A stretch of 64,000 bases of DNA from positions 9,649-73,648 of the forward strand of contig JAIQFY010000009.1 in assembly GCA_020072965.1 (NCBI GenBank). Direction: 5' to 3'. The position numbers were made by a program, and so were the translations under genes. This document shows, piece by piece, positions 8,399 to 48,288 of the stretch. The notes below the pieces were generated by a model. The model ran no database searches and was not told where the DNA came from. It saw only the letters and a list, made by a program, of their open reading frames with translations. Every line of letters starts with the position of its first letter. Positions within the stretch are counted from its first letter, which is position 1. The stretch is from Terriglobia bacterium. Lineage in GTDB: Bacteria; Acidobacteriota; Terriglobia; JAIQFV01.

Positions 8399-9397
8399 TC
8401 ATTTTGGATTGCGAAGCTCATTCAGCGCCTGTTCGACATAGGGGCGAACCATTTGCTTGCGCCAGTACATGAGGAAATCGGTGTTGTCGAGGGGCTTGGC
8501 GACAGCATGCGCTGCGGCGGCTGCGGCGCGGATGGCGTTCTCATCCAAGGGGCGACCGATCAGGAGTTTCTGCGCCTCCGTGGCTTCCAACGGATGCGGG
8601 GCGATGGCGCCCAGGATGAGTTTCGCGTCCCGAACAGTCGCGTGATCATCTTCAAACCAAACACAGGCCGCGACACCGAGCACTGGGAAGTCAAACGCGC
8701 CCCGCCGCCTTAGTTTCGCATAGCTGGCGCGCCAACCATTGGCCGGAGGAAGCAGGATTTCGGTCAACAGTTCATCGTGCTGTTTCGTTAAATAATGAAT
8801 CCCATCGAACCGGGAATAGAGTTGGGCGATGGGAATGACTCGTTCTCTCCCGGGGGAGACTAGTTTGACCCGAACGCCCAGAGCGATCAGGACCGGAACC
8901 TCATCAGCCGATTGAACGGCCCAGCAGATTTTGGATCCTGGCGCCACCCAGCAGGTATCGCCGTCTTTCTTCAGGCAGAAATGGACTCCCTTGCGCCATT
9001 CGTAGTTCTGGTCATAGTAATTGCAGCGGGTATCCAGGAGCAAATTGCCCCCGAGCGTGCCCATGTTTTGCAGGATCGGCGTCGAGATGAGTCTCGCCGC
9101 CTGAGCGATAACCGGATAATATTTCTGAATAGTCCGATTCTCAATCAGTTCGGTCAGTGTCACGCCAGCTCCGACGCTCACGCCCGTGGTCGAAGCGGAA
9201 CCTGTGATTTTCTTTAATGCGGCAATCCGGTGTAAACCAATCACGACCTTGGGAGTCTGCTGGCGGCGCTTCATGTTGGGATACAGATCCGTCCCCCCCG
9301 CGACGAACTGTCCCTCGCGACCGGCCTCTGCCATGAGCTTCACGGCATCTGCAATTTTCCGCGGCGCATGATACTCAAATTTTGGAAGTCGCATCAT
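8399..9397 (-). CDS. xanthine-dehydrogenase-family FAD-binding medium subunit with HcrB-type [4Fe-4S] insertion (4-hydroxybenzoyl-CoA reductase beta-like)
   Basis: FAD-binding fold (FVAGGTDLYPNMK). Contains the insertion LLDTRC-NYYDQNYEWRKGVHF-C-LKKDGDT-C-WVAPGSKI-C (Cys125, 141, 149, 158). Its spacing C-x15-C-x7-C-x8-C equals that of the HcrB [4Fe-4S] ligands as I recall them (C122, 138, 146, 155). Confidence 0.8.
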   Translation of the reverse strand: MMRLPKFEYHAPRKIADAVKLMAEAGREGQFVAGGTDLYPNMKRRQQTPKVVIGLHRIAALKKITGSASTTGVSVGAGVTLTELIENRTIQKYYPVIAQAARLISTPILQNMGTLGGNLLLDTRCNYYDQNYEWRKGVHFCLKKDGDTCWVAPGSKICWAVQSADEVPVLIALGVRVKLVSPGRERVIPIAQLYSRFDGIHYLTKQHDELLTEILLPPANGWRASYAKLRRRGAFDFPVLGVAACVWFEDDHATVRDAKLILGAIAPHPLEATEAQKLLIGRPLDENAIRAAAAAAHAVAKPLDNTDFLMYWRKQMVRPYVEQALNELRNPK

Positions 9398-9412
9398 AAG
9401 GCGAGCCGTTCA

Positions 9413-10393
9413 TTATCGCTTAAATGGCAAATGATCCAAATCCACGTTCCCGCCGGACAGAATAATTCCGATCCTCTTGTCCGCAAATCCCGCAGCCTTT
9501 TTGAAGATCGCCGCCGCGACCGCCACGGCGCCGGATGGTTCGACAATGATCTTCATCCGCTCCCAAATGTGACGCATGGCTTCGATGATCTCATCCTCGC
9601 TGACAGTGACGATGTCGTCGACCAGTTTCTGGATAATCGGAAACGTTTTATCTCCGAGGGACGACCGGAGGCCATCCGCAACGGTCTGCGGATGAGCCTG
9701 TAAAATGATTTTTCCGGCTTGCTTCGATTGAAACGCATCGTCAGCGCCCTTGGGTTCGCATCCAATGATCCAGGTTTCCGGAGAAAGACCTTTCATGGCC
9801 AGCGCGGTCCCGCTGATCAATCCCCCACCACCCACGGGGGCCAACAACAGGTCCAACCCTTCTTCAACCTGCTCAATGAACTCCAGGGCGCAGGTTCCCT
9901 GCCCGGCAATAACGCGGTAATTATTGTAAGGATGGATGAGGACGGCGCCGGTTCTGGCCACGAGTTCATCCGTCGTCGACTCCCGCGCCTCCAGGGTGGG
10001 CTTGCAAAAGGTGATCTCACCTCCATAGTTGCGGATCGCTCCCACCTTCGGCGCAGGCGCATTCGAAGGGACCACGATGTACGCTTTAATCCCCCGAATT
10101 CTGGCCGCCATGGAAAGCGCGGCTCCATGATTGCCGGAGGAGTGAGTGACGACTCCTTTCGCCGCGTCCGTTTCATCCAGTGAGAGGACCGCATTGATGG
10201 CCCCGCGCGCCTTGAAGGCGCCCCCCTTCTGCAGGTTTTCGCATTTGAAGAAGACCTGGGCGCCGGCCATCTCGTTCATCGTCCGGCTCGTCATGACGGG
10301 CGTGCGATGGATGTGTGGCCGTATCCTCTCGAGCGCCTCGCGAATCGTCTCCAGGCCAGGTTGGGTTTCAGCGTTTATGGTTGGAGTTGTCAT
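9413..10393 (-). CDS. PLP-dependent threonine/serine dehydratase or serine-racemase-like enzyme (fold type II)
   Basis: FKCENLQKGGAFKARGAINAV lysine motif. Gly-rich loops VGGGGLISG and SGGNV. Sits between the large and medium XDH-family subunits. Confidence 0.8.
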   Translation of the reverse strand: MTTPTINAETQPGLETIREALERIRPHIHRTPVMTSRTMNEMAGAQVFFKCENLQKGGAFKARGAINAVLSLDETDAAKGVVTHSSGNHGAALSMAARIRGIKAYIVVPSNAPAPKVGAIRNYGGEITFCKPTLEARESTTDELVARTGAVLIHPYNNYRVIAGQGTCALEFIEQVEEGLDLLLAPVGGGGLISGTALAMKGLSPETWIIGCEPKGADDAFQSKQAGKIILQAHPQTVADGLRSSLGDKTFPIIQKLVDDIVTVSEDEIIEAMRHIWERMKIIVEPSGAVAVAAAIFKKAAGFADKRIGIILSGGNVDLDHLPFKR

Positions 10394-10426
10394 ATGAATT
10401 CAATCACACTTTCTTTCTGTGTCTCC

Positions 10427-10625
10427 ATGGTTTGGTAGCCCCGGCGAGTATTCTTCTCGCCGGGGGATTCTCCAGTTTGGGTAGTCCCGGTCCGAGGCGG
10501 CGTCCGCCATTATTGCTGGCGGATCGCCGGGGGGGGGGCCAGCTTTGGTAGCCCCGGCGAGCCCGCCGCGGCGGGCCGGGGGATCTTCCCCGCGGCTCAC
10601 AGAAGCCCCGGTTTGCCATAGCGGG
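10427..10625. repeat. intercistronic cluster of GC-rich hairpins including a REP-like palindrome GAGCCCGCCGCGGCGGGC (family copy 2) and a TTTGGTAGCCCCGGCGAG direct repeat (3-4 copies)
   Basis: Hairpins read from sequence: CCCCGGCGAGtattcttCTCGCCGGGG (10436-10465) and CCGCCAttattgcTGGCGG (10504-10522). TTTGGTAGCCCCGGCGAG sits at 10430 and 10543, with variants at 10471 and 10603. The whole block lies between the large-subunit stop (10655) and the PLP gene start (10393). Confidence 0.5.
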
Positions 10626-10654
10626 ACAACGGGCTACTCGCTACCCAATCCTCC

Positions 10655-13339
10655 CTACTCCCGCGCGTGGACGGCTTCACGCAGAATTTCCTTTCCCGTC
10701 CCCCCGTCCCAGGGAGGCTTGACACGGACGGGTTCCGGCCAATCCACCTCAGGGACTGACTTTGGCCCGTAACGGTGAGGCTCTTCGACCCCCCGGGTAA
10801 TGCCTGTTCCCCCGCCGTTGGCCGATTCCCCCTCATCTTCTTGTTTTTCGTCCCGCTTCTGAATCGCGGACAGAACTTTGTCGGGCGTGATGGGGACCTC
10901 ATCGATGCGCACTTGGACCGCATCATAAACCGCGTTGGCAATAGCCGGTGGGACCGGCAGCAAGGGTCCCTGTCCGACTTCCTTGGCGCCAAACGGCCCG
11001 TTTGGATCCGGATCTTCAATCAAGAACGTCTTCACGTCGCACATTTCCAGGGTCGTGGGCGATTTGTATTCGAGGAGACTGGGAAATTTGTGCACGACAT
11101 TCCGATTAGTGCGGTAGCTCATTTCTTCCATGAGCGCTTCACCTAATCCCATGTATACCGAGCCCTCCACCTGTCCCAAGGTCAAGGCCGGGTTAATGGC
11201 GCGTCCAATATCGTGCGCAATCCAGATTCGCTCCACCCGCACAATCCCGGTGCGCGGGTCAACCTCAACTTCGGCGACCGCCGCATCGTAACTGTAAGCA
11301 GGAGAGGGACCGACTCCCGCTCCCTTGTATTTTCCTGCGGAGGGAGGCGGCGTATAACTGCCGACGGTCCCAATGGTCCCGAACCTCGCCTCGGCGATTT
11401 GCACCGCCTCGGCGAATGAGATGGACGTCTCGGGATTCTCCACGTCGAATAACCGGCCCCCTGAAAGGGAAAGACGAGTGGCGGGAATGTTCATTTTTTC
11501 CGAAACCGCGCGGATGAGCAGATCCCGGGCGCGCTCGGCTGCCTCCAGCGCCGCATTCCCGGTCATCAGCGTTACCCGGGAGGAATAACTTCCTAAATCC
11601 ACAGGTGTGAGATCGGTATCCGCCGTGAGAACTCGAATGTCGAAGGGATCAATCCCGAGCACCTCGGCAATAATGTAGGCCAAGACCGAATCGGAACCCT
11701 GTCCGATGTCGATCGATCCGCACATCACACACACGCCTCCCTGACGGTCCAGCCGGAGCTGCACCCCGGAATGCGGCATGTGGTTCCAATAAATGGGAAG
11801 CCCGGCGCCGCTCAGGTAGGAGGCACACGCCAGTCCTATGCCTTTTCCATAGGGGAGGTTTCGGAATTTGTTCTTGAAGTCGCTCGCCGTGACCACCTTG
11901 TCGATGCAGGCTGCCAGCCCCATCGAGCCAACCCTCAAGTAGTTTGAGGTGAGCGAATAGGGTTCCACCAGATGGTTCTTGCGTATTGCCACCGGATCGA
12001 GACGTAACTGTTCCGCGATTTTGTCGAGGTGAACCTCAAGGGCATAACGGGGCTGCGGGGTTCCGTGCCCTCGCTTGGGCCCGCAGGGCGGCTTGTTGGT
12101 GAACACACGGACGCCTTCAAACTTGTAATTCGGGATTTTGTAGGTCACCGTCTGCAACGCCCCGGTGTAATAAGTGGAAGCAACGCCATAACTGCCATAT
12201 GCCCCGCCATCGAGGAAGGAGCGGAAGTGCATCGCGGTAATGGCGCCATCTTTCTTCGCCCCCGTCTTCACCCACATGAGCACGGGATGTCGTCCCCGGT
12301 GGCAATAGAATACCTCTTCCCGCGTCAGGGTCACTTTCACGGGACGGCCCGTTAACAGGGCAAGTTTCGAGACAATCATTTCGTGGGGAAAAGGGTCACT
12401 CTTGCCGCCAAACCCGCCGCCATTGGGGGTCGCAATGACCCGGATACGGCTAGCCGGCATTTCCAGTACTTTCGCAAGTGCCCGGTGGACATAGTGCGGG
12501 GTCTGCGTGGAGCTCCATAAGCACAGCTTGCCGTCGCCATCGACCTGGGCCACGGCGGCGTGCTGCTCCATGGGAAGGTGCGTATTGCCTTCGTAAAAAA
12601 ATACATCCTCCCGAATCAGATCGGCCTGTTTGAATCCTTCTTCCACATCGCCAAACTCGAGGGCGACCATCTTGTGAACATTGCCGTGATCCCCATAGCC
12701 GTGAATGCGCCAGGCCTCTTTGTTCTCTCCGGCAAGCTGGGGGCCGCCGGTCCTTGAAGGATTATCGTCCATATGGGCGGAACCCGGACTTCTCAATGCA
12801 TCCTGTATCGAGGAAATGACCGGCAAGGGATCGTACTCCACTTCGATGGCATTCATCGCCTCAAATGCCGCGTCCTCATCGATGGCGGCCACGGCTGCCA
12901 CTGGATCACCGATCATGCGGACCTTGTCGAGGCACAGCGCGTGTTCGTCCTGGCTGACCGGTAAGATGCCATATGGAATCGGAAGAGACTTTCCCGTGAT
13001 CACCGCAACCACGCCGGGCATCGCTACGGCTTTGGACGTGTCAATTTTCCGAATGAGCGCATGGGGAACGTGACTGCGCAGGATCTTGCAGTAGAGCATA
13101 CGCGGCAACACGATGTCGTCGGCAAATTTCGTTTGCCCGGTTACTTTGGCCGAGGCATCCACCTTGCGAAACGGTTTGCCGACCACCTCGAGATGTTTTG
13201 AGCTTCCGTTTTTCATGAGATGAACCGGATAAGGTTTGGTAGCCGTGATCCGCCCGCTTTTTGGCGGATCACGGGTTCTTGTGACCTGCATACAAAAGCC
13301 CGCGATCTCCGCCACGGCGGACGGGATCACGGCTACCAA
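10655..13339 (-). CDS. xanthine-dehydrogenase-family molybdopterin-binding large subunit (HcrA/CoxL-like) with a ~85-aa low-complexity C-terminal tail
   Basis: 894 aa. N-terminal KHLEVVGKPFRKVDASAKVTGQTKFADD block and downstream a/b hammerhead and MoCo-binding blocks typical of CoxL/XdhB. The real start may be the internal MKNGSS. The tail DEKQEDEGESANGGGTG...PPWDGGTGKEILREAVHARE is atypical. Confidence 0.85.
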   Translation of the reverse strand: MVAVIPSAVAEIAGFCMQVTRTRDPPKSGRITATKPYPVHLMKNGSSKHLEVVGKPFRKVDASAKVTGQTKFADDIVLPRMLYCKILRSHVPHALIRKIDTSKAVAMPGVVAVITGKSLPIPYGILPVSQDEHALCLDKVRMIGDPVAAVAAIDEDAAFEAMNAIEVEYDPLPVISSIQDALRSPGSAHMDDNPSRTGGPQLAGENKEAWRIHGYGDHGNVHKMVALEFGDVEEGFKQADLIREDVFFYEGNTHLPMEQHAAVAQVDGDGKLCLWSSTQTPHYVHRALAKVLEMPASRIRVIATPNGGGFGGKSDPFPHEMIVSKLALLTGRPVKVTLTREEVFYCHRGRHPVLMWVKTGAKKDGAITAMHFRSFLDGGAYGSYGVASTYYTGALQTVTYKIPNYKFEGVRVFTNKPPCGPKRGHGTPQPRYALEVHLDKIAEQLRLDPVAIRKNHLVEPYSLTSNYLRVGSMGLAACIDKVVTASDFKNKFRNLPYGKGIGLACASYLSGAGLPIYWNHMPHSGVQLRLDRQGGVCVMCGSIDIGQGSDSVLAYIIAEVLGIDPFDIRVLTADTDLTPVDLGSYSSRVTLMTGNAALEAAERARDLLIRAVSEKMNIPATRLSLSGGRLFDVENPETSISFAEAVQIAEARFGTIGTVGSYTPPPSAGKYKGAGVGPSPAYSYDAAVAEVEVDPRTGIVRVERIWIAHDIGRAINPALTLGQVEGSVYMGLGEALMEEMSYRTNRNVVHKFPSLLEYKSPTTLEMCDVKTFLIEDPDPNGPFGAKEVGQGPLLPVPPAIANAVYDAVQVRIDEVPITPDKVLSAIQKRDEKQEDEGESANGGGTGITRGVEEPHRYGPKSVPEVDWPEPVRVKPPWDGGTGKEILREAVHARE

Positions 13340-13370
13340 ACCACTTCGGGATTGAAATGTCCCTGTACGT

Positions 13371-13916
13371 CTATGATTTCAGCCCGTACACAACTTCCTC
13401 GGCGACCTCTGCCTTTTCCCCGCGCATGTGGGCCGCTGCCAACTCGACCGCTTCGTAAATCTTGATGTAGCCCGTGCAACGGCACAGGTTGCCTGACAGC
13501 GCCTGGGCAATCTCTTCACGGGTCGGTTTTGGATTCTTTGCAAGTAATTCCAAGGCGGTCAGCAAGAATCCGGGGGTGCAGTAGCCGCACTGGGCGGCGC
13601 CGAGATCAGCAAACGTTTCCTGGAGCGGGTGCAAGCGGCCCTCCGGCAATTGCATTCCTTCCACTGTCGTGACCTCGCGGCCCTCGGCATCAAGCCCCAG
13701 GACGAGGCATGAGAGCACCGGCTTGCCGTCCAGGAGCACCGCGCAGGTCCCACATTCGCCCAGTTCACAACCGTGCTTGGTTCCGGTGAGATTCAGATCT
13801 TCGCGCAAAACTTCCAGCAGGGTCTTATGAGGTGCAAACGCAACTTCACACGGCTCCCCGTTCAGGACGAAGGCAATATGCGCTTTTTGTTTCCGAATCT
13901 TCCTTCTCTGTTTCAT
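13371..13916 (-). CDS. (2Fe-2S)-binding small subunit of the xanthine-dehydrogenase-family enzyme (HcrC/CoxS-like)
   Basis: Plant-type cluster motif GTKHGCELGECGTCAV and a second cluster motif CGYCTPG...CRCTGY. Confidence 0.9.
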   Translation of the reverse strand: MKQRRKIRKQKAHIAFVLNGEPCEVAFAPHKTLLEVLREDLNLTGTKHGCELGECGTCAVLLDGKPVLSCLVLGLDAEGREVTTVEGMQLPEGRLHPLQETFADLGAAQCGYCTPGFLLTALELLAKNPKPTREEIAQALSGNLCRCTGYIKIYEAVELAAAHMRGEKAEVAEEVVYGLKS

Positions 13917-13955
13917 CGTCTTTTGGTTCCCGGCCTCTTTGCGCCCCGGTCGTTT

Positions 13956-15371
13956 TCATAACCGAACATACTCGAATTCGAAGGGCTTGCCGCCGACGCC
14001 GCTCTTAGGGGGAGCAATCCAATTGGCAATCTTCCCCGGGTCGGTGACGGGTTTCATCAACTCGCGCACGTAAGCGCGGTCCTCTTGACCGGGCAGCCAG
14101 TGGGGGGCCTTCGCCTCATACTCTTCTTCCGAGATCAAGTTGCCCCCAAGATCGAAGTTATGGTTGGCGAATTCACCCTGATGGCGATGAAAACGGGTGG
14201 AGGGAAGGACCAACCTTGCGGAGATGCCTTCTTCCTCCAGCGCCTTGTTCCATCTTGCCAGACCGCGTTCGCAGTCTTTGACATATTCGCCACGCAGCAC
14301 TTCGTTCAACGCATTCCGGAGCGGAACCTCTTTCGTGGCAAGCTTTCCGTTCTCGATCACGGTCAGCGAATAGGTGGCGTCGCTGATCACGTGGTCCTCA
14401 TATTTCTTCTGTTCGAGATAGCGTCCTTTCAAGCCGGCCGAAAAGAAGTCCGCTGCGTTGGAAGAGATTTCTCCGCCGAAGAGGTCAAGTGAGTAGCTGT
14501 ACCAGAAATTGATGTAGCGCTGGATGATGGAGAGGGGGATGCCGTTGAGCGCCCTCACCTCGTCGTCGCCCTGATTCTTCGTCTGCTTCATCAGCTCCGC
14601 CGTCCGCTTCACAATGCGCTCCAGGCCTGACTCGCCCACAAACATGTGGTGCGCTTCTTCGGTCAGCATGAACTGGCAGGTGCGGGCCAGTGGCTCAAAA
14701 CCCGACTCCGCCAGGGACGCGAGCTGATACTTTCCGTCGCGGTCCGTGAACATGGTAAACGCGTAGAAGTTCAGCCAGTCATCACACGGCTGGTTGAAGG
14801 CGCCCAGGATCCGTGGCTTGTCGGTGTTGCCACTCCGGCGCTGGAGCAATTCTTCCGCTTCTTCACGGCCGTCGCGTCCGAAGTATTTTTGGAGGATGTA
14901 CACCATCGCCCACAAGTGTCGCCCCTCCTCAACATTCACCTGGAACAGGTTCCGCAAATCGTACATTGAAGGGCATGTGACACCCAGACGTCGTTGCTGC
15001 TCGACGGAGGCCGGCTCAGTATCGCCTTGGGTTACGACAATGCGCCGCAGCGCGTTGCGAAACTCCCCGGGGACTTCCTGGTACGCCGGATGGCCGCAAC
15101 CGTCTCCAAACCCGATGGTGGCGTTCGTCTTCGAAGGATTCAGGAAGATCCCCCAGCGATATTCCGGCATCTTGACATAACCGAAATGCGCCCAGCCTTC
15201 GGGTTCCACAGACACAGCGGTTCGAAGATAAACATCGTATCCCTGAAACCCCTCCGGCCCCATCTCGTTCCACCAGGACAGGAAATTCGGAAGCCATTTT
15301 TCCAGCGCGCGCTGAAGCTGGGGATCGTTGCTGAGATCGACATTGTTGGGAATTTTGTCAAATACGCTCAT
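13956..15371 (-). CDS. boxB: benzoyl-CoA 2,3-epoxidase (oxygenase) component B, diiron enzyme
   Basis: 471 aa. N-terminus MSVFDKIPNNVDLSNDPQLQRALEKWLPNFLSWWNEMGPEGFQGYDVYLRTAVSVEPEGWAHFGYVKM closely matches BoxB as I remember it. Two E-x-x-H diiron motifs: VEEGRHLW and TEEAHHMF. Confidence 0.85.
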   Translation of the reverse strand: MSVFDKIPNNVDLSNDPQLQRALEKWLPNFLSWWNEMGPEGFQGYDVYLRTAVSVEPEGWAHFGYVKMPEYRWGIFLNPSKTNATIGFGDGCGHPAYQEVPGEFRNALRRIVVTQGDTEPASVEQQRRLGVTCPSMYDLRNLFQVNVEEGRHLWAMVYILQKYFGRDGREEAEELLQRRSGNTDKPRILGAFNQPCDDWLNFYAFTMFTDRDGKYQLASLAESGFEPLARTCQFMLTEEAHHMFVGESGLERIVKRTAELMKQTKNQGDDEVRALNGIPLSIIQRYINFWYSYSLDLFGGEISSNAADFFSAGLKGRYLEQKKYEDHVISDATYSLTVIENGKLATKEVPLRNALNEVLRGEYVKDCERGLARWNKALEEEGISARLVLPSTRFHRHQGEFANHNFDLGGNLISEEEYEAKAPHWLPGQEDRAYVRELMKPVTDPGKIANWIAPPKSGVGGKPFEFEYVRL

Positions 15372-15442
15372 TGATGCTCCGTGTGAATCATTTCCTCTTG
15401 CCGGCGGCGTTTGAAGACTGCACGCGCCTTGCGTTCCGGCTC

Positions 15443-15552
15443 ACGAAGTCAGAGTTCAGAAGTCAAAAGTCGGAGGTCAGATATCAGAGATCGTGCTCCT
15501 TGCGCTCTTAAATCTGACTTCCGACTTCTGACTTCTGACTTCCGACCTCCTT
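15443..15552. repeat. imperfect ~45-nt-arm palindrome built from TCRRARG/GACTTCY heptamers, intercistronic between boxC and boxB
   Basis: Left arm GAAGTCAGAGTTCAGAAGTCAAAAGTCGGAGGTCAGAT. Right arm ATCTGACTTCCGACTTCTGACTTCTGACTTCCGACCTCC. Period 7, read from sequence. Confidence 0.6.
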
Positions 15553-15561
15553 TGAAAATCT

Positions 15562-17259
15562 TCATGTTCTTCGAAAATCGAATTTCGCTTTTGTCGGTTT
15601 CCCGTAATTCGTCAGCCCTCCATGTTCGCCAACGGCGTTGGGCCGCTGGAAGATCCAATTCTGCCACGCGGTGAGACGTCCATAGATCTTGGTCTCGGTG
15701 GTTTCCGGGCCGGCAAATCGCAACGAGGCTTCCATGCCGGTCAGGGCGTCGGGCGACAGCGAAGTGCGCTCTTCGATAGCAACGCGAATCTCATCGTCCC
15801 AGTCCAGGCCGTCGGGTGCCAGAGTCACGAGTCCACCTTCGAGCGCGGCGTCGGCAGAGAACCGAGCGGGAGGCTTCAACGCAGCCTCGATCCGGGCGTT
15901 ATCGTTGAGGAAACGGGATTCCAGGCGCGAAAGGCCATTCGACATGGGCAGCGCGCCGGCGTTCATCGAAGTAGTAGCGATTTTAATCGCTTGATCCGGG
16001 TCGTTTCGCATGTAGGTTCGATCCGAAGCGAGGGCAAGTTCCAACAGATTCCCCGCGAAGCAACTCCCCTCTTCAATTAAAGCAAAGAAACTCTTCGCGG
16101 TATGATCCATCCGGCGCAGGACGCGGCCCATGTGGAGAATTATCTCCCGCACCAATCCATGGTCCCGGTGGGATGAGAGCATTTCATCGATCCGATGGAT
16201 GGCGTCAATTTCGCCGTGAGTGCGGACAATCACCAGGCCGATTTCCGGCTCGTTGAAGCGCAAGTGTAGCAGCGCATCATCCAGCTCACGATAAGCCGCC
16301 AGGGCCCAGAACCGGTCTCCCCATTCCTGGATCCGCACGGCGGAATCGGGCTGGGGATCAGCGGGAGCACGCAGCGTCAGATTGGCGATCCGCGCCTTCC
16401 GGTTGAGCTGAAGGGAAACGTATCTGTATTCCCGGCCGCTCTCAGTAATCTGAACCTCAAGGGGATGCAGCTTGATTCCCTTGGGGGGCGTCGATCGAGA
16501 GGGCTCGTCGCTGGGACTGGATTGAATTTCAGCCAGTAGATGATCGATCCGGGAGGTCACCGCTTGGTCAAATTTGCTAGTCGGGAACGTGTCATCTATC
16601 AGGCCCCACTCTTTCGCACGCTTTCCTTTGATCCCTTCCGCGAGGGTGCAGAAAACATCAGCGCGGTCCCGGCGCACCTTGCGCTTATCCACCAGCCGGG
16701 TCAATCCTCCGGTCCCCGGCAGGACCCCCAGCAGAGGCACTTCCGGAAGCGAAACCGCCGAGCTGCCGTCGTCCACCAGGTAAATTGCGTCACACGCCAG
16801 CGCCAGCTCATATCCCCCACCCGCGCACGTCCCGTTGAGCGCGGCGACAAAACGGATGCCCGAAAACCGGGAGGCCTCTTCCATGGCGCAACGGGTCTCG
16901 TTGGTGAACTTGCAGAAATTGACCTTGAAGGGATGGGAAGAACTTCCGAGCATGTAGATATTGGCGCCGGCGCAAAACATGCGCGGCTTCAGGCTCTTCA
17001 CGACCACGACGCGCACCTCGGGGTGTTCGAAGCGGATGCGGTTAAGGGCATCGGCCAGCTCGATGTCGACGCCGAGGTCATAGGAATTCAATTTCAGCTT
17101 GTACCCCTCGCGCAGGGGCGAATCTTCCTGAACATCCAGTCCCAGCGTGGCGACTTCACCTTCCACGACCAAATTCCAGTGCCGGTACTGTCCCGGAGTA
17201 GCTTGAAACTCCACCGGCCGCTCGGCCGTCTGGGGTGGCGGGGTCACTGGAATCGGCAT
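15562..17259 (-). CDS. boxC: 2,3-epoxybenzoyl-CoA dihydrolase (benzoyl-CoA-dihydrodiol lyase), crotonase superfamily
   Basis: 565 aa. YRHWNLVVEGEVATLGLDVQEDSPLREGYKLKLNSYDLGVDIELADALNRIRFEHPEVRVVVV matches the BoxC N-terminal block. Two crotonase-like halves. Confidence 0.85.
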   Translation of the reverse strand: MPIPVTPPPQTAERPVEFQATPGQYRHWNLVVEGEVATLGLDVQEDSPLREGYKLKLNSYDLGVDIELADALNRIRFEHPEVRVVVVKSLKPRMFCAGANIYMLGSSSHPFKVNFCKFTNETRCAMEEASRFSGIRFVAALNGTCAGGGYELALACDAIYLVDDGSSAVSLPEVPLLGVLPGTGGLTRLVDKRKVRRDRADVFCTLAEGIKGKRAKEWGLIDDTFPTSKFDQAVTSRIDHLLAEIQSSPSDEPSRSTPPKGIKLHPLEVQITESGREYRYVSLQLNRKARIANLTLRAPADPQPDSAVRIQEWGDRFWALAAYRELDDALLHLRFNEPEIGLVIVRTHGEIDAIHRIDEMLSSHRDHGLVREIILHMGRVLRRMDHTAKSFFALIEEGSCFAGNLLELALASDRTYMRNDPDQAIKIATTSMNAGALPMSNGLSRLESRFLNDNARIEAALKPPARFSADAALEGGLVTLAPDGLDWDDEIRVAIEERTSLSPDALTGMEASLRFAGPETTETKIYGRLTAWQNWIFQRPNAVGEHGGLTNYGKPTKAKFDFRRT

Positions 17260-17322
17260 CTGGTCATCCTCCGGGATTATAGTGAGATACGCAGTATATT
17301 ACAATTTGACATCGGCAACAAG

Positions 17323-17340
17323 TGCAATATAATGCATGCG
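17323..17340. promoter_or_regulatory. candidate BoxR/BzdR operator: TGCA-N6-TGCA (TGCAATATAATGCATGCG) in the boxC/boxR divergent region
   Basis: TGCA repeats spaced by 6 nt. The embedded ATATAAT is a -10-like hexamer. BzdR-type regulators are reported to bind TGCA-containing repeats; function here is inferred. Confidence 0.35.
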
Positions 17341-17443
17341 TACCTTGAATCGCGGCCGTGCTGGATGCGGTCGGCGTCAGCGCCCAAAGACTAATACAAA
17401 CGTGGGAAATAGAGTTACATGGAGTAATGGTGGATTGTTCGCT

Positions 17444-17475
17444 GTAGGGGCGCCCGCCGCGGCGGGCGCCCCTAC
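17444..17475. repeat. REP-like perfect 32-nt palindrome GTAGGGGCGCCCGCCGCGGCGGGCGCCCCTAC, family copy 3
   Basis: Read from sequence. Located in the boxC-boxR divergent promoter region. Confidence 0.6.
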
Positions 17476-17541
17476 GTTGAATCATGCACGATGTTGTAGC
17501 ACTTTCAAGGGCGATCGAATTAGCCTCCAGAAAAGCGGGAC

Positions 17542-18342
17542 TTGGTCAACATGTCGAACCAAAGAGACTTCCTGTCAGCCATCGGAGAGCGCGTCCGTAA
17601 ATTGCGTCGCGCGCGCGGGTGGACCCAATCGCAACTGGCGGAGCGAGCCCAGCTTTCTCCCCGTTTTCTGGCCCAACTTGAGGCGGGAGATGGAAACATC
17701 TCCGTACTCCGTTTGGCGCAAGTGGCCGAGGCGTTGCACCAACCCTTGCGCGACCTGATCCCAAGTGTCTCCCTGACCGAAAGAAAGCCGGGCGGTCAAG
17801 TTCGTGGCCGCAAGCAGATCATCGCTTTGATTGGTCTCCGCGGAGCCGGAAAGACCAGTGTGGGCATTCAGTTGGCCGGACGACTCAAGCTGCCCTTCGT
17901 TGAATTGGACTCCCTCATTGAGAAAGCTGCGCTGATGCCACTGGCCCAGATCTTTTCTCTTCATGGAGAAGGCTACTATCGCCGGCTGGAGTATCAAACA
18001 TTGAAAGAGCTATTGCGGAATCCCAAGCCGATCGTACTCGCGACCGGGGGATCGCTCGTGACGGATCCGCGCACGTGGAGCCTCGTCAAGCAATCCTGCA
18101 CCTCGGTCTGGTTGAAGGCCACTCCCGAAGTTTATTGGAACCGCCTTCTCAAGCAAGGTGACACGCGGCCGATGAAGAACAACCCCTCCGCTATGACTGA
18201 GCTTCGTGCTCTGCTGGCGGCCAGGGAACCCCTCTACGGGCAGGCCGATCACATCATCGATACTTCGCGCCTCTCACTTGGTGAGGCTACGGAAGGCGCG
18301 CTTCACGCCCTTGGGATGGATGCGCTCAGTAAGGATGGATAG
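17542..18342 (+). CDS. boxR: BoxR/BzdR-family transcriptional regulator (N-terminal XRE HTH fused to shikimate-kinase-like effector domain)
   Basis: HTH block RKLRRARGWTQSQLAERAQLSPRFLAQLEAG. P-loop GLRGAGKTSVG and a shikimate-kinase fold. Divergent from boxCB. Confidence 0.8.
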   Translation: MVNMSNQRDFLSAIGERVRKLRRARGWTQSQLAERAQLSPRFLAQLEAGDGNISVLRLAQVAEALHQPLRDLIPSVSLTERKPGGQVRGRKQIIALIGLRGAGKTSVGIQLAGRLKLPFVELDSLIEKAALMPLAQIFSLHGEGYYRRLEYQTLKELLRNPKPIVLATGGSLVTDPRTWSLVKQSCTSVWLKATPEVYWNRLLKQGDTRPMKNNPSAMTELRALLAAREPLYGQADHIIDTSRLSLGEATEGALHALGMDALSKDG

Positions 18343-20096: not shown

Positions 20097-20324
20097 TCAC
20101 TCTTCCGGCCAGATCTGTTCCCCCGTTTCGGCATCAATAATCGTGATGGCATCGGTAGGACAGGACCGGGCAGCTTCGATGATGGTGTCGTCGTCATTGC
20201 CCTCCGGATTCGTGACGATCGCCTTCGACCGCTCGTCCAGGGCAAAGGTTTCCGGCGCGGTTTCAATGCAATTGCCGGCCGCAATGCACTTGGGGCGATT
20301 GATGATGATGTTTAGCTGGGTCAT
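20097..20324 (-). CDS. small single-cluster ferredoxin
   Basis: 75 aa with the cysteine pattern CIAAGNC...CP typical of [3Fe-4S]/[4Fe-4S] ferredoxins of the P450-partner type. Confidence 0.75.
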   Translation of the reverse strand: MTQLNIIINRPKCIAAGNCIETAPETFALDERSKAIVTNPEGNDDDTIIEAARSCPTDAITIIDAETGEQIWPEE

Positions 20325-23828: not shown

Positions 23829-24644
23829 CTATTTCCCCGTGAATACCGGTTTCCTCTTCTCGATGTAGGCGCTCAATCCTTCCCGCGAATCCTCGCTCTC
23901 AAACAACTCCTGCTGCATCTCACGTTCCAAGGCGAGCCCTTCGTGAAAACCCACCTCCAGTCCTGAGATGATGCTGCGCTTGATGCGGCCCACAGCCATT
24001 GCCGCCTTATGTGGCGGACAGAAATCCCGGGCATATTGCTTCACATCATCCCAGAAATTCTCCTTCTCGAACACTTCGCTCACTAATCCAAGTCGTTTCG
24101 CCTCCTCGAAAGTGATGAGCTTTCCGGAGGCCATCAGCTCCAGAGCCCGGGTCCGGCCCAATACACGGGCGAGTCGTTGGGTCCCACCGGTCCCAGGCAG
24201 GACACCCAGCGAAACCTCAGGAAATCCCAGCTTGCCGGCGCCTTTGGACGCCAGTCGAAGGTCGGCAGCGAGGGCCACCTCCAACCCGCCCCCCACGCAG
24301 TGGCCGTTCAGCGCTGCAATAACTAGTTTGGGGGTTTGCTCCAGCCGGTTGAGGGTTTCATTGGCATGCAGACAGAAGTAATATTTATAAGTGGATGTCA
24401 TCTTGGAGAGCAAGTCGATATTGGCTCCAGCACAGAAGAACTTTTCCCCGGCTCCACGTAACACGATCACGTGGACGGCATCGTCCATCCGGGCCTCGAG
24501 GATCGCGGCGTCGAGCTGTTGCATCAAGGCATAAGAGTAAGTGTTTGCAGGCGGATCATTCAGTTCGATCACTGCAATGGCGTCTTCCAGACGATAATCC
24601 ACTAATCTGTTTTCCATTTCGACGGTTCCTGTTCCAGCACGCAA
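23829..24644 (-). CDS. enoyl-CoA hydratase/isomerase family protein
   Basis: Crotonase motifs GEKFFCAGANI and ALNGHCVGGGLEVALAAD. Confidence 0.8.
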   Translation of the reverse strand: MRAGTGTVEMENRLVDYRLEDAIAVIELNDPPANTYSYALMQQLDAAILEARMDDAVHVIVLRGAGEKFFCAGANIDLLSKMTSTYKYYFCLHANETLNRLEQTPKLVIAALNGHCVGGGLEVALAADLRLASKGAGKLGFPEVSLGVLPGTGGTQRLARVLGRTRALELMASGKLITFEEAKRLGLVSEVFEKENFWDDVKQYARDFCPPHKAAMAVGRIKRSIISGLEVGFHEGLALEREMQQELFESEDSREGLSAYIEKRKPVFTGK

Positions 24645-36854: not shown

Positions 36855-38336
36855 TTGAATGGTCAGATGCCCATAACCCTTTCTCCTGCAATAAAAAAGA
36901 AGACCTCGACGCAATCCGCTGGAACAGCGGCCACTCTGCTGCGGAGGATTCCCTCAATCGACCAGTTGCTGCTGACCGCGGAGCTCCAGCGAAGCTTAAG
37001 CAGCTTCCCTCATGAGGCGGTTGTGGACGAGTTGCGTCACGCGGTTCAAACCCTTCGAAACCAGACCCTGACCGGACGTCTGTCAGACCCCGTCTTCACG
37101 CAAGCCCTGGCGGAGATCCCCGACAAGGTCCACACCATTTTGGGACGCCGCTTTGCGCCCTCTCTCGGAAAAGTGATCAATGCGACCGGCGTGGTGTTGC
37201 ACACGAATCTTGGTCGCGCGCCGCTTTCGCGTGCAATCCTGGAGCGCATCCGCGAAGTGGCCGCCGGGTACTCCAACCTGGAATTCGATTTAGCGAAAAA
37301 TACACGGGGAAATCGTGACGTTCACGCGGAGCGCCTGTTAACATCGCTGCTCCGTTGCCAGGCCGCGCTGGTGGTAAACAACTGCGCCGCCGCAGTTCTG
37401 TTGACGCTCAATTCACTGGCGGAGGGTGGCGAGGTCCTTGTCTCCCGGGGAGAGCTTGTGGAAATCGGGGGATCGTTTCGAATCCCTGAAATCATGGCGA
37501 AAAGCGGTGCCGTGTTACGCGAGGTGGGAACCACCAATCGCACCCGGGTCAGCGATTATGCCCGGGCCATCAACGCTCAAACAAGACTCATCCTTAGGGT
37601 CCATCGGAGTAACTTCAAGATGGTCGGCTTTTCGGAACAGCCGTCGCTGGAGGAATTGGTCCGGCTGGCACACCGCAAGCACCTGCCCCTGGTTGAGGAC
37701 CTCGGCTCCGGGTGCGTTGTCGATTTGAGCCCGACCGGAATCACCGGCGAACCTACCGTCGCTGCCAGCCTGAAGGCGGGCGTCGATGTCATCACCTTCA
37801 GCGGCGATAAGCTGCTCGGCGGACCCCAGGCGGGCATCCTGTTGGGCCGCAAGAAAATCCTGGCGCAGCTTCGGACGAATCCCCTTTACCGGGCCTTTCG
37901 CGTCGACAAGCTGACGGTGGCAGCCCTTGAGGCCACAATCCTTTCCTACCTCCGACATGAAGAGCGCACACAAGTCCCGGCACTTAAGATGATCTTCGAA
38001 ACACGCGACCAAATTGAATCTCGGGCAAAGCGGCTGGTTCAGCGCGTGGACGAGGAAACAAAGCCGGGTGGTATGCTCTTGCTCCAGCTTATTCCTGGAA
38101 ATTCCGTGATCGGCGGAGGGTCCACGCCGGGGCAGGAAATCTCCACCATGCTGATATCCATCGGTTCTACCCGAGATTCCGCCCGGGCGATTGAAGCCCG
38201 CCTGAGGGGTTCTCCCATTCCCATTCTGGCAAGGGTGGAAGGGAACCGCGTGCTTGTCGATTTGAGAACCGTGGATGTAAGCGAGGAGGAAGAGATCGTT
38301 CGCGCCCTGGTGAGCCTGGGGAAGCCGGTGGTATAA
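36855..38336 (+). CDS. selA: L-seryl-tRNA(Sec) selenium transferase
   Basis: GKVINATGVVLHTNLGRAPLS block. PLP-lysine context FSGDKLLGGPQAGILLGRK. Confidence 0.85.
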   Translation: MNGQMPITLSPAIKKKTSTQSAGTAATLLRRIPSIDQLLLTAELQRSLSSFPHEAVVDELRHAVQTLRNQTLTGRLSDPVFTQALAEIPDKVHTILGRRFAPSLGKVINATGVVLHTNLGRAPLSRAILERIREVAAGYSNLEFDLAKNTRGNRDVHAERLLTSLLRCQAALVVNNCAAAVLLTLNSLAEGGEVLVSRGELVEIGGSFRIPEIMAKSGAVLREVGTTNRTRVSDYARAINAQTRLILRVHRSNFKMVGFSEQPSLEELVRLAHRKHLPLVEDLGSGCVVDLSPTGITGEPTVAASLKAGVDVITFSGDKLLGGPQAGILLGRKKILAQLRTNPLYRAFRVDKLTVAALEATILSYLRHEERTQVPALKMIFETRDQIESRAKRLVQRVDEETKPGGMLLLQLIPGNSVIGGGSTPGQEISTMLISIGSTRDSARAIEARLRGSPIPILARVEGNRVLVDLRTVDVSEEEEIVRALVSLGKPVV

Positions 38337-47260: not shown

Positions 47261-47454
47261 ATCCCATTCTAATCACGAACCCGGATTCGCGAAATTCTTT
47301 TTTTATATGTTTGGGCTATGGAAGAGCTATTTCAGTCCACAGATTACGCCGATCACACCGAGTAAAATCAAGATTTAAAGCAGTCGTTGTTTTTGATATC
47401 CTCACGATTCATCGAAGACGAGATATTTCAAAGACCGGGGACATCAAGGGCAGA

Positions 47455-48288
47455 ATGGCCATTTCAGTCAGCGGCATTTTTCATCATCCGGTGAAATCTG
47501 CCAAGAGCAAGCCGCTAAACCGTGCAGAGATTGGTGTGCGCGGAATTTTGCACGACCGCGAATGGATGGTGGTCGATGAGCGGGGAATGTTCGTGGCGCA
47601 GCGCCAATCTTCGGAGGCTGGTGTCGAAGTCCGGACCATGTGTTTGGTGGACGCCGCCCTCCAGGACAGGCGCCTGGTCCTCACAGCCCCCGGCCTGAGC
47701 TCAATCTCGGTTCCCCTCAGTGGCCCCGATACCCCGGAAGAAGAGGTGCGGGTCTGGGAGCATCAAGCCCGCGGCATCGATCAAGGCGAAGAGGTCTCCC
47801 GTTGGTTGAGTGAACTGCTCGGAAGGGAGAGACCCGGGAAATATCGCCTCATACGAATGTCAAACCATCACGTTCGCCGCGCCAAACAGGGAGATTCACA
47901 GCTGGCCTTCGCCGATGGCTATCCGTTCCTCATTATCTCTCAGGCTTCGCTGGATGATCTGAACAGCCGCCTTTCAGAAGCCCTTCCTATGAACAGGTTT
48001 CGCCCCAACCTCGTTCTTGACGGGTGCGCGCCGTACCAGGAGGATCAAATGGCCTTGATCCGGATCGGCCGAGTCCTTCTCGAGGGCCAGGGGCTATGCG
48101 CACGCTGTCCAACCACGGCCACCAATCAGGAAACCGCCGAGCGCGGCAAGGAGCCGCTCCGCACCCTGGCGACCTACCGCCGGCACCCCAGCGGCGAAGA
48201 CGGTGTCGTGTTCGGGCGTAATTTCAATCATTTGAATCTCGGGACGATCGCGATGGGGGATACCGTTGAAATTCTAGCTGCTGACTGA
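47455..48288 (+). CDS. MOSC-domain protein (YcbX-like: MOSC_N beta-barrel plus MOSC)
   Basis: Start chosen at MAISVSGIFHHPVKS; the ORF track starts at 47311. MOSC block with conserved Cys: LEGQGLCARCPTTATNQETAERGKEPLRTL. Confidence 0.7.
   Translation: MAISVSGIFHHPVKSAKSKPLNRAEIGVRGILHDREWMVVDERGMFVAQRQSSEAGVEVRTMCLVDAALQDRRLVLTAPGLSSISVPLSGPDTPEEEVRVWEHQARGIDQGEEVSRWLSELLGRERPGKYRLIRMSNHHVRRAKQGDSQLAFADGYPFLIISQASLDDLNSRLSEALPMNRFRPNLVLDGCAPYQEDQMALIRIGRVLLEGQGLCARCPTTATNQETAERGKEPLRTLATYRRHPSGEDGVVFGRNFNHLNLGTIAMGDTVEILAAD

Follow-up and report, generated by a model that had tools for sequence, protein, structure and literature searches.

Why should the genes of an enzyme resembling 4-hydroxybenzoyl-coenzyme A (CoA) reductase (4-HBCR; HcrCAB), which is regarded as a sign that aromatics are catabolised anaerobically, lie directly beside boxC and boxB, the genes of the O2-dependent epoxide (Box) route for benzoyl-CoA? 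The question is raised by a 64-kb stretch of a Terriglobia (Acidobacteriota) genome (hereafter the window). On its minus strand, six co-directional genes (8399-17259) follow one another in the order boxC-boxB-hcrC'-hcrA'-PLP gene-hcrB' (PLP being pyridoxal 5'-phosphate), with a divergent boxR on the opposite strand. The best explanation, in which we place about even confidence, is that this is a BoxR-controlled operon in which a reductase of the Hcr branch turns a substituted aroyl-CoA, most likely 4-hydroxybenzoyl-CoA, into benzoyl-CoA for BoxB and BoxC.

The operon and its regulator

The genes of the operon, together with its regulator, the putative operator and the promoters, are as follows.

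17542-18342, plus strand: BoxR/BzdR-type regulator, with an XRE helix-turn-helix and a shikimate-kinase-like domain (HTH_3 and SKI), divergent from boxC
17323-17336, no strand assigned: putative BoxR operator TGCAATATAATGCA (TGCA-N6-TGCA), overlapping the -10 element of boxR and upstream of the boxC promoter
17276-17333, both strands: back-to-back sigma-70-like promoters in the boxR-boxC spacer, from a consensus pattern scan only
15562-17259, minus strand: boxC, 2,3-epoxybenzoyl-CoA dihydrolase (TIGR03222 equivalog at 787.5 bits, the cut-off being 712.3)
13956-15371, minus strand: boxB, oxygenase component of the di-iron benzoyl-CoA 2,3-epoxidase (TIGR03225, 748.8 bits against a cut-off of 499.1)
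13371-13916, minus strand: hcrC', Hcr-like gamma subunit that carries a pair of [2Fe-2S] clusters (Pfam Fer2 and Fer2_2)
10655-13216, minus strand: hcrA', Hcr-like alpha subunit (Mo-pterin), 'Q-clade' (Pfam Ald_Xan_dh_C and MoCoBD_1/2)
9413-10393, minus strand: PLP-dependent dehydratase of the serine/threonine-dehydratase and beta-hydroxyaspartate-dehydratase family (PALP, 288 bits)
8399-9397, minus strand: hcrB', Hcr-like beta subunit, with flavin adenine dinucleotide (FAD) and an extra [4Fe-4S] loop (FAD_binding_5 and CO_deh_flav_C)

The coordinates and identities that a first-pass annotation had given to these genes were all confirmed by the coordinates of the open reading frames (ORFs) and by the Pfam and NCBIfam scores, while the block that it had described as five co-directional genes followed by two more is actually one of six (i.e. 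four plus two). BoxB and BoxC both lie above their equivalog cut-offs and thereby qualify as Box pathway enzymes, and BoxB aligns over its full length with the Azoarcus BoxB structure 3PER (617 bits). The start of hcrC lies 39 nt past the boxB stop codon, with no terminator predicted in that gap.

The regulator had been called as BoxR/BzdR-type from its domain architecture, a call that is borne out by its score on NF006015 (BzdR/BoxR type; 290 bits against a cut-off of 204) and by the matching operator. BoxR-type orthologues occupy the same position in three metagenome-assembled genomes (MAGs) of Terriglobia/Acidobacteriia (L001, L005 and L086). The BoxR/BzdR operator consensus, ATGCACTATAGTGCAT, was derived by comparative genomics (PMC6449761), and TGCAATATAATGCA with its flanks agrees with it at 13/16 positions. 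It is the sole TGCA-N6-TGCA in the window (the background over all fetched loci being 0.015 per kb), and a site of this form has been kept in the boxR-boxC spacers of the same three MAGs and of L047. Of the two promoters, which are pattern matches only, that of boxR (TTGACA-16-TATAAT, plus strand, 17306-17333) has 12/12 consensus matches and that of boxC (TTGTAA-17-TATAAT, minus strand, 17304-17276) has 10/12.

The molybdoenzyme and its linkage to boxCB

Judged by its sequence, the complex is a member of the 4-HBCR branch among xanthine-oxidase (XO) family enzymes, within which it belongs to a separate, uncharacterised 'Q-clade'. Among solved structures, the alpha subunit is matched best by 1RM6_A (HcrA of Thauera aromatica) at 580 bits, the next match being a CoxL at 264, and the beta subunit by 1RM6_B (HcrB) at 178 bits, with the next match at 112. 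The gamma subunit (147 bits to 1RM6_C versus 160 to others) is a generic small subunit of the XO family; as an Hcr marker it was discarded as undiagnostic, since it cannot separate Hcr from other XO-family enzymes. The beta subunit also contains an insertion of ~40 residues with the pattern C-x15-C-x7-C-x8-C, the four Cys of which align with the HcrB loop of 1RM6_B. In HcrB this loop ligates the additional [4Fe-4S] cluster of 4-HBCR, and it is highly conserved (nearly invariant) in 64 related loci. The set of three subunits and the gene order gamma-alpha-beta are as in HcrCAB, the alpha-beta pair being split by the PLP gene in this lineage only. The first-pass annotation had named an Hcr-type molybdoenzyme here, and had considered that the subunits might instead cluster with CO or xanthine dehydrogenases, which they do not. 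Its assignment to the branch thus stands on the 1RM6 scores and the four-Cys loop, whereas orthology to the characterised HcrCAB does not.

The clade is of very great size. With the acidobacterial query, more than 8000 database clusters are matched at E <= 1e-50 (the best 120 at 71-99% identity), and with the Rokubacterial one a further ~8000 at E <= 1e-100 (the best 120 at 84-99% identity). The order boxR | boxC boxB hcrC hcrA PLP hcrB is kept in the three MAGs named above, whose HcrA proteins are 78% (L001), 90% (L005) and 99% (L086) identical to that of the window. Another order, hcrC hcrA hcrB-(regulator)-boxC boxB, arose independently and is found in Rokubacteria (L055 and L167-L172), in a member of the Myxococcales (L051) and in an unclassified bacterium (L058). 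Every one of these copies belongs to the Q-clade, and those of L055, L051 and L058 carry its Gln motif, which is described below. The Rokubacterial arrangement occurs on many contigs (one protein was found on 24) and forms an island in which a Liv-type ATP-binding cassette (ABC) transporter and hcrCAB are joined by an XRE/cupin regulator, by boxC (920 bits) and boxB (840 bits), and by a Rid-family gene and two CoA ligases, one a TIGR02262 benzoate-CoA-ligase-family gene (703 bits) and the other PaaK-like. In one further acidobacterial locus (L093), a BoxR-type regulator (HTH_3 and SKI, 95-980) is divergent from a stand-alone hcrC-hcrA, the hcrC promoter of which shows visible homology to that of boxC in L001 (TATAATGCACTTG...GGTAATATATTGCAC).

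Following from the recurrent linkage, the two gene orders, the ligases and the L093 regulator, it therefore seems that the clade is tied to aroyl-CoA/benzoyl-CoA metabolism, and on the same comparisons it appears very unlikely that hcr and boxCB became adjacent by chance. No description of the coupling was known to the first-pass annotation, and none was found in the literature searched on hcr or 4-HBCR with box. In one tundra metagenome study, hcrAB and boxBC do appear together in the gene lists of the same bins, although the study makes no remark on it (PMC4842900).

The proposed route and its rivals

In the proposed route, the operon would be repressed by BoxR, with benzoyl-CoA as the probable inducer. 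The alpha-beta-gamma complex would contain Mo-pterin, two [2Fe-2S] clusters, FAD and the extra [4Fe-4S] cluster. Low-potential electrons would enter via the [4Fe-4S]/FAD of the beta subunit, after which the Mo site would reductively strip an aroyl-CoA (by default 4-hydroxybenzoyl-CoA) of a substituent at the para (or ortho) position of its ring to leave benzoyl-CoA. This would be epoxidised by BoxB with O2, and hydrolysis by BoxC would then yield 3,4-dehydroadipyl-CoA semialdehyde and formate. The identities of the genes, the cofactor motifs of Hcr type, the BoxR operator and the recurrence of the linkage with boxCB and CoA ligases in several phyla are observed; in setting out this route we infer its substrate, the direction of electron flow, the co-transcription of the genes and the electron donors to both the Hcr-like enzyme and BoxB. 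The same sequence of events, from a hydroxy-aroyl-CoA via benzoyl-CoA into the Box enzymes, had been put forward in the first-pass annotation; it is the best-supported reading, but it is unproven, with 4-hydroxybenzoyl-CoA proposed rather than established as the substrate.

A number of observations weigh against it. The alpha subunit is only 41% identical to HcrA of the only characterised 4-HBCR, and all three subunits fall below the respective equivalog cut-offs (alpha on TIGR03194, 808.2 versus 994.55 bits; beta on TIGR03195, 251.7 versus 404.55; gamma on TIGR03193, 168.2 versus 257.8). The catalytic Glu726 in the active site of the Thauera enzyme (GAKEASEGM) is a Gln in the window (GAKEVGQGP). 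Moreover, the 4-HBCR of Thauera has been described as oxygen-sensitive (PMC12771579), whereas BoxB needs O2. The 64-kb window contains neither a CoA ligase nor an obvious low-potential ferredoxin-reducing system, and the absence of boxA at the locus leaves the electron supply of the epoxidase unexplained. Finally, synteny across the Acidobacteriota, which had been suggested as a check, is kept in the three MAGs but is not general: boxB or boxC was found near the Q-clade hcr genes in 0/80 acidobacterial loci from soil metagenomes (L087-L166), the flank of which extends over at least 4 kb upstream in 33 and at least 5 kb downstream in 37. Because of this last result, the main role of the Q-clade may be independent of Box. 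The neighbours of the stand-alone acidobacterial hcr loci are panBC, mocA, peroxiredoxin and similar genes; the MocA-like cytidylyltransferase that adjoins these operons fits a molybdopterin cytosine dinucleotide cofactor.

Two of the departures from the characterised HcrCAB are signatures of the clade. The motif GAKE[V/A]GQGP, with Gln at the position of the catalytic Glu, is present in 240/240 close homologues, while 118/136 representatives of the XO family retain the Glu; the general-base motif of XO hydroxylases (G-x-K-G-x-G-E) does not occur in the window protein. The C-terminus of the alpha subunit has an added, conserved and clade-specific tail of ~40 residues (RYGPKSVPEVDWPEPVRV...GG.GKE..REAVHARE). 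When 136 family representatives are placed in a neighbour-joining tree (without support values), the window protein groups with L001, L003, L055 and P0121, while Thauera HcrA and P0140 fall in a different subclade of the same 'GAKE' superclade. The Glu is the general base that XO-family hydroxylases and aldehyde oxidoreductases require, and Glu-to-Gln variants of the Rhodobacter xanthine dehydrogenase are inactive. With Gln in place of this general base, an ordinary oxidative (i.e. hydroxylase) role is therefore unlikely, while a reductase role is compatible with it. It is because of the 41% identity, the sub-cut-off scores, the Gln and the added tail that 4-hydroxybenzoyl-CoA is treated here as a probable and not as an assigned substrate.

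The Box pathway named by the first-pass annotation is, in its known form, incomplete at this locus, where the absence of boxA, of a CoA ligase and of boxD had been overlooked. No boxA was detected in the window (the best tblastn hit having E = 0.39), no CoA ligase was detected there at E = 10, and no aldehyde dehydrogenase (boxD) is encoded anywhere in the 64 kb. BoxA is the NADPH-dependent Fe-S flavoprotein reductase of the pathway. In a BoxB sample of 80 genome loci from GTDB genomes (L006-L084), in which boxA was sought within 10 kb, the gene follows boxB in 24 betaproteobacterial-type genome loci only (25 with the Mycetohabitans plasmid reference L085). No BoxA-like sequence was found, even at E = 0.01, in the window or in 55 non-betaproteobacterial boxCB genome loci, which span Acidobacteriota, Myxococcota, Planctomycetota, Rokubacteria, Chloroflexota and others. 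Since boxA is lacking in all of the non-betaproteobacterial loci, its absence is a general trait outside the Betaproteobacteria and not peculiar to the Hcr-linked clusters. In the latter (the window, L001, L005, L086, L051, L055, L058 and L167-L172) there is no boxA, and no other redox protein save for a probable nitroreductase-family gene in L058, identified by eye. Neither does any alternative reductase recur beside the BoxA-less boxCB, where only crotonases, short-chain dehydrogenases/reductases (SDR), TetR and occasionally an aldehyde dehydrogenase are found. In Pyrinomonadaceae, for example, the genes behind boxCB are tetR, those of two crotonases and that of an SDR, with no hcr, and some BoxA-less Myxococcota loci keep a boxD-type aldehyde dehydrogenase.

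Two genes on the far side of boxR may be related to the electron supply and to the lower pathway, respectively.

20097-20324, minus strand: 75-amino-acid single-cluster ferredoxin (CxxAxxC...CP, typical of the [3Fe-4S]/[4Fe-4S] type), identified as an ORF
23829-24644, minus strand: enoyl-CoA hydratase (ECH_1), one of two upstream crotonases

The ferredoxin gene, located 3 kb from the operon and downstream of cstA, is a candidate electron carrier for it; among the relatives only the closest, L005 and L086, have kept it, and the identical gene in L086 matches Fer4_13/15/19. The enoyl-CoA hydratase is 64-68% identical to the box-linked ones of L006-L020, is the orthologue of the Pyrinomonadaceae crotonase just downstream of boxB-tetR, and is probably a lower-pathway enzyme.

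The missing reductase also gives rise to a different explanation of the operon, namely that the Hcr-like complex is itself the absent redox component of a BoxA-less pathway, passing electrons to the di-iron centre of BoxB, and/or that its Mo site acts as a safety valve by deoxygenating the reactive 2,3-epoxybenzoyl-CoA to regenerate benzoyl-CoA. This seems unlikely, but it is retained because the hcr genes fill the exact slot behind boxB that boxA has in Burkholderiales. It would agree with the lack of boxA in every Hcr-linked cluster (and of other redox proteins in all but L058) and in 55/55 non-betaproteobacterial loci; the Gln at the catalytic position marks an altered chemistry of the Mo site, and the conserved C-terminal tail could serve docking. 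However, most of the BoxA-less boxCB loci (Pyrinomonadaceae, Sorangium, Polyangia) also have no hcr within 10 kb, boxA could reside elsewhere in these genomes, a full Mo subunit is superfluous for a simple reductase, and no XO-family enzyme is known to serve a di-iron oxygenase. The more far-reaching form of the idea, in which the Q-clade complex is integral to a Box pathway without BoxA, widespread beyond the Proteobacteria (either as electron partner of BoxB or as a Mo-dependent deoxygenase recycling the toxic 2,3-epoxybenzoyl-CoA) and the Gln and the tail are adaptations to that role, is quite unlikely.

That the adjacency has no meaning for the pathway, the Q-clade being a widespread 'housekeeping' molybdoenzyme of soil bacteria with a substrate unrelated to benzoyl-CoA, would account for the 0/80 acidobacterial loci linked to box (with panBC, mocA and peroxiredoxin as neighbours instead), for the great size and high conservation of the clade and for the equivalog cut-offs that are not reached. 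It is nevertheless distinctly improbable, since co-oriented, direct adjacency arose in at least three lineages and in two gene orders, the Rokubacterial cluster (on 24 contigs) brings transporter, ligases, hcr and boxCB together in a coherent aromatic-acid island, and the stand-alone hcr operon of L093 is fronted by a BoxR-type regulator and a boxC-like promoter. Most doubtful of all is an oxidative function, e.g. that of a CoA-thioester aldehyde oxidoreductase which replaces BoxD (3,4-dehydroadipyl-CoA semialdehyde to the acid) and possibly returns two electrons to BoxB. The overall reaction would then be redox-neutral, and neither the window nor the Hcr-linked clusters have an aldehyde dehydrogenase (boxD). 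This is highly improbable all the same: the general-base Glu that 118/136 representatives possess is Gln in 240/240 close homologues, which disfavours a BoxD substitute, and a boxD-type enzyme is kept in some of the BoxA-less Myxococcota loci.

If the proposed route of reductive removal of the ring substituent ahead of BoxB and BoxC is true, abundant uncultured soil bacteria degrade lignin-derived 4-hydroxybenzoate, or related phenolic acids, wholly as CoA thioesters, with a single O2-dependent step. Such a strategy for low oxygen would differ from the protocatechuate route. The clade concerned is a very large one of soil bacteria, with thousands of sequences from Acidobacteriota and Rokubacteria, an altered active site and repeated wiring to BoxBC. 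Matches to 'hcrA' in soil metagenomes should not count as evidence of anaerobic metabolism, and the natural Glu-to-Gln variant is usable as a probe of the mechanism of Mo-dependent dehydroxylation.

The PLP gene, the spacers and comparison with known systems

The PLP enzyme has BhcB as its best model (458 bits against a cut-off of 550), and its gene is retained only in L001, L005 and L086. In other members of the clade (L087-L166) the gap between hcrA and hcrB holds unrelated inserted genes, i.e. Uma2 nucleases, BrnT/BrnA toxin-antitoxin pairs, a polysaccharide-deacetylase-like gene, CarboxypepD_reg-type proteins of ~640 amino acids and coiled-coil proteins (labels that were read by eye from the sequences, except for Uma2 in L003, which is a Pfam match). 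Because this gap carries unrelated genes elsewhere, it is taken to be a hot spot for insertions and the PLP gene to be a probable passenger there, and the dehydratase was set aside as an unlikely functional subunit. One caveat concerns the Rid-family genes that follow boxB in Rokubacteria, since these could link the PLP gene to imine/enamine chemistry. The Rid-family (L-PSP) gene is located directly 3' of boxB in L167-L172 and L055, with stop and start 2-10 nt apart, and so occupies the place of boxA in betaproteobacteria. A member of COG251 has been placed in betaproteobacterial BoxR regulons (PMC6449761).

The spacers within the operon contain several repeat elements, one of which affects the reading of hcrA. 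Those in the hcrC-hcrA and hcrA-PLP spacers are described here as resembling miniature inverted-repeat transposable elements (MITE) or repetitive extragenic palindromes (REP).

15445-15549, minus strand: boxC-boxB spacer, long hairpin formed by an inverted repeat (arms of 45 nt) of AAGTCAG/AAGTCGG heptamers, with no T-tail
13233-13342, no strand assigned: MITE/REP-like insertion between hcrC and hcrA with perfect 19-nt terminal inverted repeats, from an inverted-repeat search
10428-10576, no strand assigned: two units of a REP-like hairpin plus GGCTACCAAA (10428-10453 and 10541-10576) in the 261-nt hcrA-PLP spacer

The ORF of the Mo subunit (10655-13339, 894 amino acids) traverses the 110-nt inverted-repeat element at 13233-13342, which is not present in L001, where the gap between hcrC and hcrA is only ~25 nt. 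The 894-residue reading was dropped, as its upstream extension crosses this insertion and is not conserved in homologues. The true start is most likely the ATG at 13216, giving a product of 853 amino acids, because the lengths and alignments of the homologues begin there and the gap in L001 is so short. The copy at 13233-13342, which artificially lengthens the hcrA ORF, belongs to a small palindromic REP/MITE-like family ending in GGCTACCAAA; all copies of this 10-mer in the window (4/4, the full 64 kb having been searched) are confined to the spacers hcrC-hcrA and hcrA-PLP. The boxR-boxC spacer contains a GC-rich palindrome (17446-17477) that has its core, CCCGCCGCGGCGGGC, in common with the element at 10556-10576 in the hcrA-PLP spacer. 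The hairpin in the boxC-boxB spacer (RNA fold of -63.1 kcal/mol, z = -7.7) could be an element for mRNA processing or stability, or another repeat insertion.

An Rfam scan of the region from 8 to 25 kb returned no molybdenum-cofactor or other riboswitch. Besides spurious microRNA matches on hairpins, it returned one Acido-Lenti-1 small RNA (RF01687; 19850-19894, plus strand), with 38.2 bits against a gathering threshold of 37, between the ferredoxin gene and a hypothetical gene of 158 amino acids; this RNA agrees with the window being of acidobacterial origin. Unlinked to the operon are a gene for a MOSC-domain protein (47311-48288, plus strand) and one for selenocysteine synthase SelA (36855-38336, plus strand), which suggests that the organism makes selenoproteins.

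Of the systems with which the operon can be compared, HcrCAB of Thauera aromatica (PDB 1RM6/1SB3) and HbaBCD of Rhodopseudomonas palustris share the three subunits, the gamma-alpha-beta order and the set of domains. The Thauera enzyme, the nearest structural relative for alpha and beta, also shares the four-Cys loop of the beta subunit and the 'GAKE' variant of the active-site loop. It differs in the sequence of its alpha subunit (41% identity), in its place in a separate clade of the neighbour-joining tree, in having Glu726 where the Q-clade has Gln and in lacking the ~40-residue tail, and the window subunits remain below the cut-offs of its families. Unlike the Hcr and Hba genes, those of the window are joined to the O2-dependent boxCB and not to the anaerobic benzoyl-CoA pathway, and the Q-clade is hosted by soil Acidobacteriota, Rokubacteria and Myxococcota. 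Within the XO family just one other reductive dehydroxylase has been characterised, namely Ucdh, the urolithin C 9-dehydroxylase of Enterocloster (PMC12771579). By its description, it resembles the proposed reaction in removing an OH para to an electron-withdrawing carbonyl, and differs in using NADH and in having a free polyphenol as its substrate; its identity to 4-HBCR is 33%, and its hosts are strict anaerobes (PMC12771579).

With the Box clusters of Aromatoleum/Azoarcus and Burkholderiales, the operon has in common the BoxB and BoxC equivalogs, the divergent BoxR, the TGCA-N6-TGCA operator and the order boxC-boxB. In those clusters the order is boxR | boxC boxB boxA, with boxD and bclA divergent, whereas the window cluster is without boxA, boxD and bclA and its hcr-like genes fill the slot behind boxB.

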